From an uncultured Actinomycetota bacterium (GTDB lineage: Bacteria > Actinomycetota > Actinomycetes > Mycobacteriales > Mycobacteriaceae), in NCBI GenBank assembly GCA_963815705.1, contig CAWFHQ010000007.1, positions 170,687 through 234,686 of the forward strand: a stretch of DNA of 64,000 bases, read 5' to 3'. Positions 29,857 through 44,111 of the stretch are shown in pieces (the stretch's first letter is position 1; the number at the start of each line of letters is the position of its first letter). The position numbers were made by a program, and so were the translations under genes. A model generated the notes under the pieces. It saw only the letters and a program-made list of their open reading frames with translations. It did not search any database and was not told where the DNA came from.

Positions 29857-30273
29857 TCAGGCTGCCGAACGCGGGCCTACCTGTGCGATCGGCAGGTGCA
29901 GCACCACCGTGGGCGTTCCGATGGCCTCGTGCTCGCTGCGTGCCAACAACGCCGCGTTCTCGGGGAGCTGCCGGGAGCTGATCTCGCCGGCGGCGATGCG
30001 TCGCAGGATTTCGTGGGCTCGAGCAAGCTGCTCGCGCTTCCGGTACTGGCCGCCGGGAAGTTTGACGCCGGCCCAGACTCCGTATTCCTCCCGATGTGCG
30101 ATCGCGTGCTGGGCGCACCGCCGCTGCTGTGCCAACGGGCAGCGACGCAGGCATTGGATCCGCGCCTCGGTGGCCGACCGCTCGTAGGCACGCGCCTTGG
30201 CCGCGCCGTCACCACTGTCGTCGTCGGGGTAGCCGAACCACAGCTCCGGGTCGGTTGCGCAGGGGTGTCCCAT
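29857..30273 (-). CDS. whiB5: WhiB-family Fe-S transcription factor, WhiB5-like
   Basis: 138 aa from ATG 30273, preceded by AGGAG: MGHPCATDPELWF..IQCLRRCPLAQQRRCAQHAIAHREEYGVWAGV.. It has four Cys with C-X3-C spacing rather than C-X2-C, as I recall for WhiB5, and sits divergent from the Rv0023-like gene. Confidence 0.85.
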   Translation of the reverse strand: MGHPCATDPELWFGYPDDDSGDGAAKARAYERSATEARIQCLRRCPLAQQRRCAQHAIAHREEYGVWAGVKLPGGQYRKREQLARAHEILRRIAAGEISSRQLPENAALLARSEHEAIGTPTVVLHLPIAQVGPRSAA

Positions 30274-30294
30274 TTCGGTCTCCTTGTCTGGGAT

Positions 30295-30362
30295 GAAACG
30301 TAGGCAAAAGCGTATATCTAATAGGCCGCCCCGTGCAAGAGAAACGTGACAGAAACGTATAT
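30295..30362. promoter_or_regulatory. direct repeats in the whiB5/XRE divergent promoter region (GAAACGT x3, CGTATAT x2)
   Basis: GAAACGT occurs at 30295, 30341 and 30352. CGTATAT occurs at 30311 and 30356. The segment is locally AT-rich. Confidence 0.4.
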
Positions 30363-30393
30363 ACATAGCGATAGGGCCCGGCGTGTGTAATAT

Positions 30394-30408
30394 CCGGCCT
30401 ATGGCCGG
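30394..30408. promoter_or_regulatory. perfect palindrome CCGGCC-TAT-GGCCGG just upstream of the XRE start codon
   Basis: Read directly. It ends 9 nt before GTG 30418. Confidence 0.35.
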
Positions 30409-30417
30409 AGCCCGCGG

Positions 30418-31206
30418 GTGAGCCGTGAATCGGCAGGTGCGGCCATCCGTGCATTGCGTGAGTCGCGCGATTGGTCCTTAGCGGAGCTTGCTGCCGCGAC
30501 GGGCGTCAGCATAATGGGACTGAGCTATCTGGAGCGCGGCGCCCGCAAGCCGCACAAAAGTACAGTTCAGAAGGTTGAAAACGGCCTGGGCCTGCCGCCG
30601 GGCACCTACTCGCGGTTGTTGGTGGCCGCCGATCCGGACGCCGAGCTGGCCCGATTGATCGCTGCGCAGCCCCCCGAAACAATGTCTCCGCGAGGCGCCG
30701 GGGCGGTGGTCGTCGACCGACACAGCGACACCGAAGTGCTGGAAGGTTATGCCGAAGCCCAACTCGATGCCCTCAAATCCGTCATCGATCGGCTGCCAGC
30801 GACGACATCAAACGAATATGAGACGTATATTCTCTCTGTGATCGCGCAGTGCGTGAAGGCGGAGATGCTTGCGGCCAGCTCGTGGCGCGTGGCCGTGAAC
30901 GCCGGCGCTGACTCGACCGACCGGCTGATGGAGCATCTGAAAGCCCTCGAGGAGACGCGCGGCGCTCTGCTGAAGCGGATGCCGACCAGCTTGAGCGCGC
31001 GTTTCGACCGGGCTTGTGCGCAGTCATCGCTGCCCGACGCGATCATCGCGGCACTGCTCGGCGTGAGCAGTGACGAAATGTGGGATATCCGCAATCGTGG
31101 GGTGATCCCCGCAGGGGTACTCCCCCGCGTCCGTGCGTTCGCCGACGCGATGGAGCGGCCGGACGAAGACAGCACAGGTCAGGACAGCGGCGAGGGGGAC
31201 CGATGA
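30418..31206 (+). CDS. XRE-family helix-turn-helix transcriptional regulator (Rv0023-like)
   Basis: 262 aa with a GTG start. The N-terminal HTH is IRALRESRDWSLAELAAATGVSIMGLSYLERGARKPHKSTVQKVENGL. Confidence 0.85.
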   Translation: MSRESAGAAIRALRESRDWSLAELAAATGVSIMGLSYLERGARKPHKSTVQKVENGLGLPPGTYSRLLVAADPDAELARLIAAQPPETMSPRGAGAVVVDRHSDTEVLEGYAEAQLDALKSVIDRLPATTSNEYETYILSVIAQCVKAEMLAASSWRVAVNAGADSTDRLMEHLKALEETRGALLKRMPTSLSARFDRACAQSSLPDAIIAALLGVSSDEMWDIRNRGVIPAGVLPRVRAFADAMERPDEDSTGQDSGEGDR

Positions 31207-42420: not shown

Positions 42421-42461
42421 GCCGATCTTCGGCTCGGGGGCGGGGCGGCAGAAAAGGTGAA

Positions 42462-42490
42462 TCGACACCTGGCAGCGGCCACCATAGAAT
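42462..42490 (+). promoter_or_regulatory. sigma-A-like promoter candidate for the PE-PPE pair (TCGACA-N17-TAGAAT)
   Basis: The -35 TCGACA lies at 42462-42467, followed by a 17-nt spacer and the -10 TAGAAT at 42485-42490. It sits in the 179-nt eccC/PE spacer. Confidence 0.45.
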
Positions 42491-42599
42491 CGGTCCATTC
42501 CGCGTGTTGTCGGCGGGCACAACTTGCCTGGTGGGGAGCCAGCCAAATGGGGTATACCCCTACGGATGCATCCGGGCATTGAGAAATACGGAGGGCAAA

Positions 42600-42899
42600 A
42601 TGGCTGGGATCTTTGGAATGGTGCCGGGCGCCGTTGACTTGTCGTCGGTCACCGAAGGCGCGATCAGCGAGGAGATGTCGGCAACGACCGCCGCCGGCGC
42701 GGCAGCGCTGACCGGCGTACTGCCAATGGCGCCGGACGCCGATTCTGTGGAATTCGCCGCCGCGTTGAATGCTGCGGGAGGGGCCTACTTGGCAACCGCG
42801 TCCGAGCACGCCGGGCAGCGGTCCGCCTTCTCAGGCGCGCAAGGACTTGCGTCTGTCACTAACGTCGCAGCCGACGTAGCCAGCTCGAGCGTGCTTTAA
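42600..42899 (+). CDS. PE-family-like protein (atypical, ESX-locus type)
   Basis: 99 aa from ATG 42600, preceded by GGAGGG: MAGIFGMVPGAVDLSSVTEGAISEE..LTGVLPMAPDADSVEFAAALNAAGGAYLATASEHAGQRSAF.. It is Ala-rich, about 100 aa long, and sits immediately 5' of a PPE gene. Confidence 0.75.
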   Translation: MAGIFGMVPGAVDLSSVTEGAISEEMSATTAAGAAALTGVLPMAPDADSVEFAAALNAAGGAYLATASEHAGQRSAFSGAQGLASVTNVAADVASSSVL

Positions 42900-42905
42900 C
42901 CGAAG

Positions 42906-44111
42906 ATGCCCGATCCCAGGTGGACAGGTCCGCCCGAGATCATCGCCCTGATCTTCGAGGCGGGCAACCCGGCGTCGGTGCTTGCCAACAACGCCGTGTG
43001 GGTCACCGAGACCACCAACAAGGAACTGGCGGCCGGCCTTTCCAGCGTCAACTCCCTGGCCACGGCGGCGCAATGGCAGGGCGTAGGTGCACTCGCGTCG
43101 ATGGTTACCTCGACCGGCCTCAATGCCGGACTGCACACGCTGGTGGGCTGGACCGCGGAGAAGATCGGCGTCACGACGGCTGCCGTCGAGGCCTTCATGA
43201 TCGCGCGGTCGTCGGTCATCCCATCAGTGGTGTCGACGACTAACCGGTTTGAGTGGCAAGGATTGCTCGACACGAACTTCTTCGGTCAAAACACCCCGGG
43301 AATCATCGAGCGGGATACCGAGTACTACGGCGAACACTGGCCGCACAATTCGAGCATCGGTTGGACCTACTCCGGTGCGCTGGCCGCGCTGGTCGCGGCG
43401 CTGGCCGTTCCCCCGCCCATCGCCCCGATGGGTGCCTCGCCTGCCGGTCCGGCGGCGGCGGCCTCGGCCGTGGCGCAGGCGGCCGCGGAGGGCGGCATGA
43501 ACAACGCGATGCAAGTAGGTAGCCAAGCGACACAGGGTGCCGGTCAGGCGGCGTCCGCACCCGCCGAGGGCGGCAGCCAGCTCAGTTCACTCATGCAACA
43601 GCCGCTGCAAATGATCTCTGGCCTGACCGAACCGCTGCAGCAGGTCGTCAAGGCTCCGATGGATGCGTTCCAGGGGATGGCCAGCATGCCGCAGGGCTTA
43701 CTTCAATCGATGACGAGCGCGTTTTCGTCGGCGGGCGGAGGCAATGCCGGAGCGGCCGGCGCTGCCGCCGAGCCCTTTCTGGCCGGGGCGGCCGGTCCCC
43801 TTGGCGGAGGGGCTGGCGGCGGCGGCGTGGGTGCGGGCGGCAGCTTCCCGGGCGCCGGGTTGACCAGCTACACCCGTCCGACCAGCAGTTTTGAGCCAGA
43901 GACCGGGGGCAGACCGACGAGCCTGCGTGCTGGCGTGCTCAATGCGTCCGAGCTACGCGGTCCCACCTCCCGGACGGGAACCGGGATGGGGGGTTCGGCG
44001 ATGCCGATGTCACCGGCCGGCATGCTGGGGCACGGCAAGGAGGGCCAAGCCGACAAGGACGTCACCCGCGCTCGCGTGGTCGTCGGCGGCGACCCGACCG
44101 ACGAAACCTAG
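42906..44111 (+). CDS. PPE family protein (divergent, ESX-locus type)
   Basis: 401 aa starting 6 nt after the PE stop: MPDPRWTGPPEIIALIF.., a WxG motif (QWQGVG), ..[33 protein letters not shown].. (PPE domain blocks), and a Gly/Ala-rich C-terminus. Confidence 0.85.
   Translation: MPDPRWTGPPEIIALIFEAGNPASVLANNAVWVTETTNKELAAGLSSVNSLATAAQWQGVGALASMVTSTGLNAGLHTLVGWTAEKIGVTTAAVEAFMIARSSVIPSVVSTTNRFEWQGLLDTNFFGQNTPGIIERDTEYYGEHWPHNSSIGWTYSGALAALVAALAVPPPIAPMGASPAGPAAAASAVAQAAAEGGMNNAMQVGSQATQGAGQAASAPAEGGSQLSSLMQQPLQMISGLTEPLQQVVKAPMDAFQGMASMPQGLLQSMTSAFSSAGGGNAGAAGAAAEPFLAGAAGPLGGGAGGGGVGAGGSFPGAGLTSYTRPTSSFEPETGGRPTSLRAGVLNASELRGPTSRTGTGMGGSAMPMSPAGMLGHGKEGQADKDVTRARVVVGGDPTDET

Follow-up and report, generated by a model that had tools for sequence, protein, structure and literature searches.

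A probable first section of a divided type VII secretion system of the ESX-2 family, beside whiB5 in an uncultured mycobacterium

Here, we describe a type VII secretion locus in a stretch of 64,000 nucleotides (nt) from an uncultured Actinomycetota bacterium of the family Mycobacteriaceae (assembly GCA_963815705.1, contig CAWFHQ010000007.1, positions 170,687 to 234,686), which we refer to as the window. Genes for EccB, EccC, a PE-like protein and a PPE protein stand there behind a run of genes that resemble Rv0022c-Rv0030 of Mycobacterium tuberculosis. We conclude, with a probability of roughly 0.7, that the region represents the first part of a type VII system of the ESX-2 family that is split in two, and that it has stayed where the lineage originally lay, next to whiB5 and about 35 kb away from the replication origin oriC. 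A split of this kind has been published for M. decipiens and M. riyadhense, and because loci of these species share both clade and layout with ours, the window most likely holds the first section. The missing half (esx pair, espG, ParA-like gene, eccD, mycP, eccE, and eccA) would then reside in a second genome section, and the two sections together would encode one machine. For the source organism, the analysis covers the 64-kb window.

Results

Four genes make up the secretion core of the section, and a fifth bounds it on the right. Genes were called from a listing of open reading frames (ORFs), third-position GC (GC3) periodicity, and Pfam and NCBIfam profile searches (E, expectation value).

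36833-38335, + strand: EccB (PF05108, E = 2e-147; TIGR03919, E = 8e-139; both above curated cut-offs)
38341-42420, + strand: EccC, a single-chain FtsK/SpoIIIE ATPase of 1359 amino acids (aa) (TIGR03924, E = 1e-214; TIGR03925, E = 5e-173)
42600-42899, + strand: short PE-like protein in a PE36-like position (PF00934, E = 0.0026, below cut-off)
42906-44111, + strand: PPE protein in a PPE69-like position, last gene of the section (PF00823, E = 7e-17)
44112-44908, - strand: Rv0036c-like MDMPI gene (Pfam), the right boundary, convergent, 20 nt past the PPE stop

A preliminary description of this DNA, made from its letters, had named EccB, a three-ATPase EccC, PE, and PPE. Profiles and Walker A motifs bear out EccB, EccC, and PPE; in EccC, residues 499, 861, and 1155 mark the Walker A motifs of three P-loop domains. 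For PE, the profile match is weak, and the call is backed by position and orthologues: the protein is 59% identical to M. tuberculosis PE36 over 44 residues, it has orthologues in the PE proteins of related loci, and the PE-PPE pair lies directly downstream of eccC. The PPE is 39% identical to its M. tuberculosis ESX-2 counterpart. The same description had proposed a candidate unnumbered locus outside ESX-1 to ESX-5, a view that the relationships of EccB and EccC contradict. EccB is 96% identical to that of M. montefiorense, 82% to M. decipiens, about 80% to M. xenopi, 65% to M. tuberculosis EccB2, and 54% to the plasmid-encoded EccB of M. paragordonae. Its best named relatives are found in M. 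triplex, M. lentiflavum, M. simiae, and M. montefiorense (90-96% identity), and some sources label the M. triplex and M. lentiflavum orthologues EccB2. EccC follows the same pattern, with 97% identity to M. montefiorense, 86% to M. decipiens, 83% to M. xenopi, 58% to M. tuberculosis EccC2 over its N-terminal 540 residues, and 60% to the intact EccC of two loci from the ESX-2 lineage that includes the M. tuberculosis system (L086 and L090; L numbers denote loci in our comparison). Among M. tuberculosis paralogues, in a comparison that included no ESX-4 reference, the closest is thus ESX-2. Against solved structures, EccB scores highest with EccB5 (304 bits), followed by EccB3 (268) and EccB1 (217), an order in keeping with a sister relationship between ESX-2 and ESX-5 (Dumas et al.).

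Our M. tuberculosis ESX-2 reference was locus L084 of assembly GCA_030571315.1, reached via the Rv3899c fragment of PDB entry 5IMU. At L084 13148-16840, eccB2 contains a stop and eccC2 carries an internal deletion (731 aa called). Either ESX-2 is disrupted in this strain or the assembly is faulty.

We placed EccB in a bootstrapped neighbor-joining tree of 50 sequences, built from this one protein with plasmid outgroups and no ESX-1, -3, -4, or -5 sequences. Proteins encoded at the whiB5 site form a clade with 99.5% bootstrap support. A second clade, which we call ESX-2 proper (100%), unites M. tuberculosis, M. kansasii, M. malmoense, M. scrofulaceum, and M. avium complex-like genomes. The two clades are 63-68% identical to one another, and they group together at 85.5%, as judged against the plasmid outgroups only, whose EccB proteins are at most about 53-54% identical to that of the window. 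By sequence, EccB and EccC belong to the ESX-2 family and, within it, to the whiB5-site lineage. Loci without the esx-to-eccA half fall in one group inside the whiB5-site clade (96%), comprising the window, the M. simiae complex, M. szulgai, M. angelicum, M. asiaticum, M. intermedium, M. haemophilum, M. kubicae, M. decipiens, and M. riyadhense.

The window lacks the rest of an ESX-2 system. Where the full order would read eccB-eccC-PE-PPE-esx-esx-espG-Rv3888c-like-eccD-mycP-eccE-eccA, the locus ends after PPE. The Rv0036c-like gene comes next, followed by MFS, AlgH-like, SBF, LpqN, and leuS genes. Searches of all 64 kb found no homologue of esx, espG, eccD, mycP, or eccE; eccA was not among the queries. 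Relatives continue, and the PPE/Rv0036c-like junction is the very point at which complete loci go on to esx-esx-espG. A scan of species-representative genomes returned 80 loci, among which 24 chromosomal ones proceed past PPE into two WXG100 genes, espG, a ParA/CbiA-like (Rv3888c-like) gene, eccD, and mycP where the flank reaches. These are mostly environmental genomes and include Mycobacterium sp. SM1, ENV421, and shizuoka-1. M. xenopi RIVM700367 likewise has the complete arrangement through mycP, beside whiB. Thus EccB and EccC fall in a named ESX clade whose remaining genes sit adjacent in relatives, and since the window stops at PPE where these relatives continue to mycP, it holds a section and not a whole system. 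The junction of PPE with the MDMPI gene is common to the M. simiae complex, M. szulgai, M. asiaticum, M. intermedium, and M. haemophilum. One clade together with one junction shared by many of its members makes a single ancient event the simplest account of the break.

Two species in the group without the second half have been described before. A 2024 report on the nearest kin of M. tuberculosis (PMC11237670) states, with confirmation by polymerase chain reaction, that the ESX-2 genes of M. decipiens and of M. riyadhense are divided between two sections of the genome, and puts the similarity of their proteins to the M. tuberculosis counterparts at 50-68% (average, about 56%). A 2021 paper (PMC8356964) had noted that the ESX-2 locus of M. 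riyadhense lacks eccB and eccC. We find the eccB-eccC pair of both species at the whiB5 site. Their loci agree with the window in content and order from whiB to PPE, in the Rv0036c-side site, in EccB clade, and in having nothing of the esx-to-eccA half after PPE. They differ in species and in detail: the window comes from a species of the M. simiae complex (over the region, 90.6% of nucleotides are identical to those of M. montefiorense), and its PPE gene abuts the Rv0036c-like gene, whereas kinase, hydrolase, and LppA genes have been inserted in M. decipiens and M. riyadhense. In M. riyadhense (L093 16001-17189), PPE is called as two ORFs and is followed by a weak WXG100 match and by hydrolase and LppA genes. 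A Ser/Thr kinase gene separates PPE from the Rv0036c-like gene in M. decipiens (L083 17415-19358) and M. simulans (L017 17253-19001). The breakpoint has been remodelled secondarily in these three species.

The retained genes are under strong purifying selection. Ratios of nonsynonymous to synonymous substitution (dN/dS; pairwise Nei-Gojobori, median dS about 0.95) are nearly the same in the truncated clade and in complete loci for eccB (0.116 versus 0.126) and eccC (0.084 versus 0.083), and are lower in the truncated clade for PE (0.096 versus 0.28) and PPE (0.19 versus 0.40). The flanking Rv0036c-like MDMPI and MFS genes gave 0.175 and 0.198, respectively. EccC is full length (1356-1364 aa) in 21 genomes with the truncated layout, representing about 20 species. 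Across these genomes, the Walker A and B motifs of the first ATPase domain are identical but for one conservative substitution in one genome, those of the second are invariant, and those of the third keep the consensus while nonconsensus positions vary. Low dN/dS and conserved Walker motifs contradict the notion of a fragment in decay.

Ahead of eccB lies the run of accessory genes, listed here with the ORF on the opposite strand that interrupts it.

29857-30276, - strand: whiB5-type transcription factor (PF02467, E = 5.6e-11), divergent from the XRE gene
30418-31206, + strand: XRE-family regulator, Rv0023-like, first + strand gene (HTH_3, E = 3e-12)
31203-32027, + strand: predicted NlpC/P60 peptidoglycan endopeptidase, Rv0024-like (PF00877, E = 2.5e-22; best NCBIfam match, RipC)
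32043-32405, + strand: DUF4226 helical protein, Rv0025-like (PF10774, E = 6e-37), conserved in related loci
32533-33972, + strand: DUF4226 protein with a Pro/Gly-rich linker and a C-terminal domain, Rv0026-like (PF10774, E = 9e-38)
34018-34335, + strand: EspC-family small helical protein, Rv0027-like (PF10824 T7SS_ESX_EspC, E = 3e-27)
34332-34643, + strand: DUF2694 protein, Rv0028-like (PF10904, E = 4.6e-52), with an ATGA overlap with the EspC-family gene
34654-34797, - strand: conserved 47-aa ORF in the 302-nt gap between the DUF2694 and EspK-like genes
~34946-36397, + strand: EspK-like protein, Rv0029-like (DUF5632 plus DUF5631; PF18646, E = 1e-36; PF18645, E = 2e-39)
36467-36787, + strand: DUF2710 protein, Rv0030-like (PF10921, E = 1.8e-52)

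The preliminary description had presented a head-to-tail run of twelve + strand genes next to oriC, preceded by a divergent WhiB5-type gene. ORF listing and profile searches recover all twelve at the positions given, with whiB on the - strand ahead of them, and the window begins with dnaN-recF-gyrB-gyrA, which puts the locus 30-44 kb from oriC. Pfam and NCBIfam profiles support the calls of whiB, XRE, NlpC/P60, both DUF4226 proteins, the EspC-family protein, DUF2694, the EspK-like protein, DUF2710, EccB, EccC, and PPE. On rereading, the ATGA overlaps at 31203 and 34332 and the 6-nt spacing of PE and PPE proved correct, while eccB and eccC are 5 nt apart and not 6. The run itself is interrupted by the 47-aa ORF, which had been overlooked, and DUF2710, the YbaB-like member, sits 3' of the Rv0029-like gene and not 5' of it. 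With that amendment, the Pfam order is a divergent whiB/XRE pair followed by NlpC/P60, two DUF4226 genes, EspC-family, DUF2694, DUF5632/5631, and DUF2710. M. decipiens, M. riyadhense, and M. xenopi have the same families in the same order from whiB to DUF2710; M. haemophilum has the module too, but without the EspK-like gene.

The proposal that Rv0022c-Rv0030-type genes form an accessory arm of a type VII system gains considerably from this comparison. Upstream sequence was long enough in 69 loci, and in 61 of these the entire whiB-XRE-P60-DUF4226-EspC-like-DUF2694-DUF2710 module stands ahead of eccB-eccC-PE-PPE, so that the suggested linkage of the two halves is found across genomes as well as in the complete system of M. 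xenopi. In M. decipiens, eccB-eccC-PE-PPE occupies the space between the Rv0030-like and Rv0036c-like genes. The same interval in M. tuberculosis H37Rv presumably holds an insertion sequence remnant and bioF2..fadD34. On the M. paragordonae plasmid NZ_CP025548.1, DUF5631, DUF4226, EspC-like, DUF2694, and DUF2710 genes stand ahead of a complete eccB...eccA set. Chromosomal synteny and the plasmid locus together indicate that the accessory module is a stable part of ESX-2-family loci, and they support its interpretation as the probable regulatory and accessory arm of the system. This extends the remark of Dumas et al. (2016) that an NlpC/P60 gene lies within an ESX-2 synteny block common to ESX plasmids.

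Several of these genes deserve individual comment. The start codon of whiB is uncertain (orthologues have 138-139 aa), and the gene is kept at the same position in nearly all related loci. In M. tuberculosis, esx-2 is reportedly regulated by WhiB5 (Casonato 2012, as cited in PMC7020754 and PMC3796483), and Rv0023 binds the region upstream of whiB5 and shares an operon with Rv0024 (PMC7020754). The XRE gene has a dN/dS of 0.14, and its end overlaps the start of the P60 gene. The P60 protein has a helical N-terminal half, no signal peptide, and the catalytic motifs DCSG and GHV in its translation. Both DUF4226 paralogues stand as described. The degenerate P60-like C terminus ascribed to the second received a weak match to the P60 domain (hhalign probability, 41%; E = 2.8e-4) with the catalytic Cys region absent, so that this domain may be a degenerate P60 remnant; a single-sequence AlphaFold model of it was unusable (predicted local distance difference test [pLDDT], 46).

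The EspC-family gene has a dN/dS of 0.14, and its product is, by analogy, a candidate secreted substrate. DUF2694 is the most conserved accessory gene (dN/dS, 0.06), and DUF2694 and DUF2710 rank as the top two signature domains of slow growers (PMC10551460). These two had been described as YbaB-fold, EspL-like proteins. DUF2710 does have a weak YbaB/EspL-like similarity, below the cut-off (PF02575, E = 5e-4), while DUF2694 has no YbaB similarity and aligns to DUF2710 with an hhalign probability of 0.3%. PDB sequence searches with either protein gave no match, and a single-sequence AlphaFold model of DUF2694 was poor (pLDDT, 51). The 47-aa ORF (MADSALQQQLDEVR..LFGANPIEPP.DIAPDPD) is present in 75 of 93 loci and is an annotated gene in M. 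decipiens, M. xenopi, M. haemophilum, and M. riyadhense. It has a pooled ratio of nonsynonymous to synonymous polymorphism (pN/pS) of 0.18 across 67 sequences, a weak match on the M. paragordonae ESX plasmid, and no Pfam match.

The EspK-like protein, for which GTG 34880 is an alternative start, consists of a helical N terminus, a (PE)n linker, and a DUF5632+DUF5631 C-terminal domain. The Pro-Glu linker that had been reported is indeed present, as 46 residues at 35579-35716 forming 23 perfect Pro-Glu dipeptides with a third-position GC of about 0.92. Its length differs widely among species, and tblastn matches to the protein are split in most loci. The protein matches the Rv3899c fragment in PDB entry 5IMU (E = 9e-32), in keeping with an EspB-binding EspK C-terminal fold that is common to Rv0029, Rv3899c, and Rv2082 (PMC9811218). 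Look-ups in M. kansasii and M. canettii for ESX-2-proper or Rv0029 loci led only to Rv2082-type loci in unrelated surroundings and were set aside.

Comparison with other systems places the window among complete, relocated, and plasmid-borne relatives. Complete whiB5-site loci (L091 of M. xenopi RIVM700367, and L027, L030, L059, and others of environmental mycobacteria) share the left arm and eccB-eccC-PE-PPE with it, but continue into two WXG100 genes, espG, a CbiA/ParA-like gene, eccD, and mycP. An Rv3896c-like gene with an SLT lytic-transglycosylase domain also lies directly upstream of eccB in M. xenopi and in many but not all of the complete loci; this gene is absent from the window and the whole split clade. 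In M. xenopi (L091 9063-9998) and M. tuberculosis (L084 12282-13151), the gene at this position encodes a DUF4226-like N terminus joined to the SLT domain; the two proteins are 44% identical, and the domain in the M. xenopi protein scores 24 bits, above cut-off.

M. tuberculosis H37Rv ESX-2 (Rv3884c-Rv3895c, with Rv3896c-Rv3899c upstream) has the same eccB-eccC-PE-PPE order and an EspK-like gene upstream, Rv3899c, while Rv3896c resembles the N-terminal half of the window P60 protein. It nonetheless represents a sister lineage, as the identities given above attest, and occupies a different site, next to ESX-1 and across oriC from the whiB5 site. A tblastn search of 10 kb upstream of M. tuberculosis ESX-2 found no DUF4226, EspC-like, DUF2694, DUF2710, XRE, or whiB gene. 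We had considered Rv3897c and Rv3898c to be paralogues of Rv0027 and Rv0028, a notion we dropped when tblastn upstream of M. tuberculosis eccB2 gave only EspK-like and Rv3896c-like similarities.

The ESX-P2-type plasmid of M. paragordonae has the accessory families and then eccB, eccC, PE, PPE, two WXG100 genes, espG, a ParA-like gene, eccD, mycP, eccE, and eccA. It departs from the window in being plasmid-borne and complete, in its 54% identical EccB, in a split eccC and an inserted Lsr2 gene, and in lacking the whiB/XRE pair and a full NlpC/P60 gene. The extended ESX-1 locus (espJ-espK-espL-espB, with distal espACD) offers parallels in its EspK-fold protein with a Pro-rich linker, its YbaB-fold EspL, and its small EspC-family protein. 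ESX-1 is, however, a different ESX family, and an EspB-like substrate was not identified at the window locus.

Discussion

Our results suggest that the window carries one section of a divided ESX-2-family system that is shared by a whole clade of slow-growing mycobacteria. A split, divergent ESX-2 in M. decipiens and M. riyadhense is already known, and the window probably represents another species with the same. As far as the searchable literature shows, the connection of the split section with the whiB5/Rv0023-Rv0030 site is new, as are the complete system of M. xenopi at that site, the breadth of the split clade, and the selection data. The available parts of the two earlier papers do not mention the whiB5/Rv0023-Rv0030 adjacency (PMC11237670 and PMC8356964; a text search for "whiB5" gave 0 matches), and literature searches on ESX-2 in the M. 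simiae complex returned nothing useful.

If the section is functional, EccB and EccC would assemble with EccD, EccE, and MycP of the other section into an inner-membrane complex, by analogy with the solved ESX-3 and ESX-5 structures, and EccC would serve as the substrate-selecting motor. Candidate substrates are the PE-PPE pair, the EspC-like protein, and the DUF4226 proteins. The EspK-like and YbaB-like DUF2710 proteins may act as cytosolic chaperones or adaptors, as EspK does for EspB (PMC9811218). The NlpC/P60 enzyme could open peptidoglycan locally, a legacy of the conjugative-plasmid ancestry of ESX-2, and in complete loci the Rv3896c-like SLT protein might do so as well. WhiB5 and the XRE protein would be regulators encoded in cis.

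A number of considerations weigh against the split-system interpretation. The second section is unseen in the source organism, and eccD, mycP, and eccE in the M. simiae complex are extrapolated from M. decipiens and M. riyadhense. Roles for all of the accessory proteins are proposed by analogy. The EccB tree is a neighbor-joining tree of a single protein with the sampling given above, lacking ESX-1, -3, -4, and -5. ESX-2 proper branches outside the entire whiB5-site clade, so that both lineages are old, and their relation could be one of paralogy, of replacement through transfer, or of rapid evolution once one had relocated. Lastly, in M. montefiorense DSM 44602, the closest sequenced relative, EccB has a stop at codon 19 (Y19*; L002 10001-11500) and the 47-aa ORF is frameshifted (L002 ~7224-7363), with EccC intact; these lesions reflect either decay in a sublineage or assembly errors.

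We initially considered a simple truncated ESX-2 whose other half had been lost, an account that we downgraded after obtaining the dN/dS result and finding the published split. In a rival account, the esx-to-eccA half has been deleted outright and EccB-EccC-PE-PPE with the accessory arm now use the core of another ESX system, such as ESX-5 or ESX-3, or work without EccD and EccE. The strong selection on what is left, with PE and PPE more constrained than in complete loci, would fit such a true orphan, as would the lack of second-half homologues in the window (eccA not queried). So would the recurrence of solitary eccB-eccC pairs in ESX-2 proper, in M. avium complex-like and other genomes. Yet the solved ESX-3 and ESX-5 complexes contain their cognate EccB, EccC, EccD, and EccE, and we know of no example of EccB and EccC working with the core of another system. 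Furthermore, the other half exists elsewhere in both members of the clade examined genome-wide, according to PMC11237670, and the M. avium complex case has been described as a transposition and not a loss (PMC4791881). We therefore regard an orphan as unlikely.

The solitary pairs are themselves informative about the other lineage. At the ESX-2-proper loci L086 (M. avium complex-like), L087 (a metagenome-assembled genome), and L089, which are syntenic with Rv3910-Rv3895c, only eccB2-eccC2 are left, and unrelated genes follow. Retention of eccB-eccC thus recurs outside the whiB5-site clade, and these loci match the eccB2/eccC2 transposition reported for the M. avium complex by Newton-Foot et al. 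(PMC4791881).

A sixth chromosomal ESX type, a separate paralogue coexisting with ESX-1 to ESX-5, appears quite improbable. The whiB5-site and ESX-2-proper EccB clades are reciprocally monophyletic and well separated, and M. tuberculosis is reported to have both Rv0029 and Rv3899c EspK-like genes (PMC9811218), so that both arms once coexisted. Against this, complete members show ESX-2 gene order, and the system of M. decipiens and M. riyadhense is called ESX-2, and their only ESX-2, in PMC11237670. Gene order and UniRef-style naming lead us to expect that the systems of M. xenopi and M. sinense would likewise be called ESX-2. The named species in the two EccB match lists do not overlap, except for one assembly labelled M. 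simiae. That assembly (GCA_008370645) is the sole candidate for a genome with both eccB types, and we found no other. We rejected its ESX-2-proper locus (L089) as proof of coexisting lineages, as it is a single assembly whose EccB groups with M. kansasii, which also renders its species label doubtful. A decaying rearrangement fragment, ESX-2 leftovers heading for deletion as presumably happened when M. tuberculosis lost eccB-PPE from the whiB5 site, is the least credible explanation, given that dN/dS of 0.08-0.12 at dS of about 1 and intact EccC ORFs with conserved catalytic motifs outweigh the premature EccB stop of M. montefiorense, the divided PPE of M. riyadhense, and the missing EspK-like gene of M. 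haemophilum.

Within the split-system interpretation, the history of the two EccB lineages invites a further proposal, to which we would give somewhat less than an even chance: that two anciently separated ESX-2 lineages, one at the whiB5 site and one beside ESX-1, were both present in the ancestor of the tubercle bacillus, and that Rv0022c-Rv0030 is the surviving arm of the one that was lost. The whiB5-site lineage would then be whole in M. xenopi and in many mycobacteria from soil, divided in about 20 slow-growing named species, and reduced in M. tuberculosis to Rv0022c-Rv0030, while the other would lie beside ESX-1 in M. tuberculosis, M. kansasii, and the M. avium complex. M. decipiens, a close relative of M. 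tuberculosis, has a whiB5-site EccB that is only 64% identical to M. tuberculosis EccB2, a distance between close relatives that argues against the two types being simple orthologues. That M. tuberculosis holds both Rv0029 and Rv3899c suggests old paralogues that coexisted; relocation or replacement is the alternative.

ESX-2 is one of two M. tuberculosis ESX systems whose function is still unknown, and Rv0024-Rv0030 are still annotated as conserved hypotheticals. Linking this left arm to an ESX-2 lineage frames experiments on both, and the finding that about 20 slow-growing species keep a selected eccB-eccC-PE-PPE section beside whiB5 widens the "ESX-2 heterogeneity" of 2024 from two species to a whole clade, with no new kind of machine. 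If the proposal of two ancient lineages is true, it would explain the control of ESX-2 by WhiB5 in M. tuberculosis, and Rv0024-Rv0030 and the 47-aa ORF would become testable ESX-2 accessory factors or substrates.

Additional observations

A scan of the region for promoters and terminators gave a number of sites not above the expectation from shuffled sequence. Its best sigma-70-like match (42462-42490, TCGACA-17-TAGAAT, 10/12) falls in the 179-nt spacer between eccC and PE, and the PE-PPE pair may thus have its own promoter.

Two identical copies of the whole locus occur in M. numidiamassiliense (NZ_FUEZ01000004.1, 78445-121472; L007 and L008) as mirror images meeting near 99,958, which represent either an inverted duplication or an assembly palindrome. 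Finally, the window has a further PPE gene some 3 kb upstream of whiB, between fhaA and a pirin gene (25285-26832, - strand), whose product ends in PPE-SVP and SHOCT domains, and a similar PPE gene is found at the same place in M. haemophilum (L092 961-2310).

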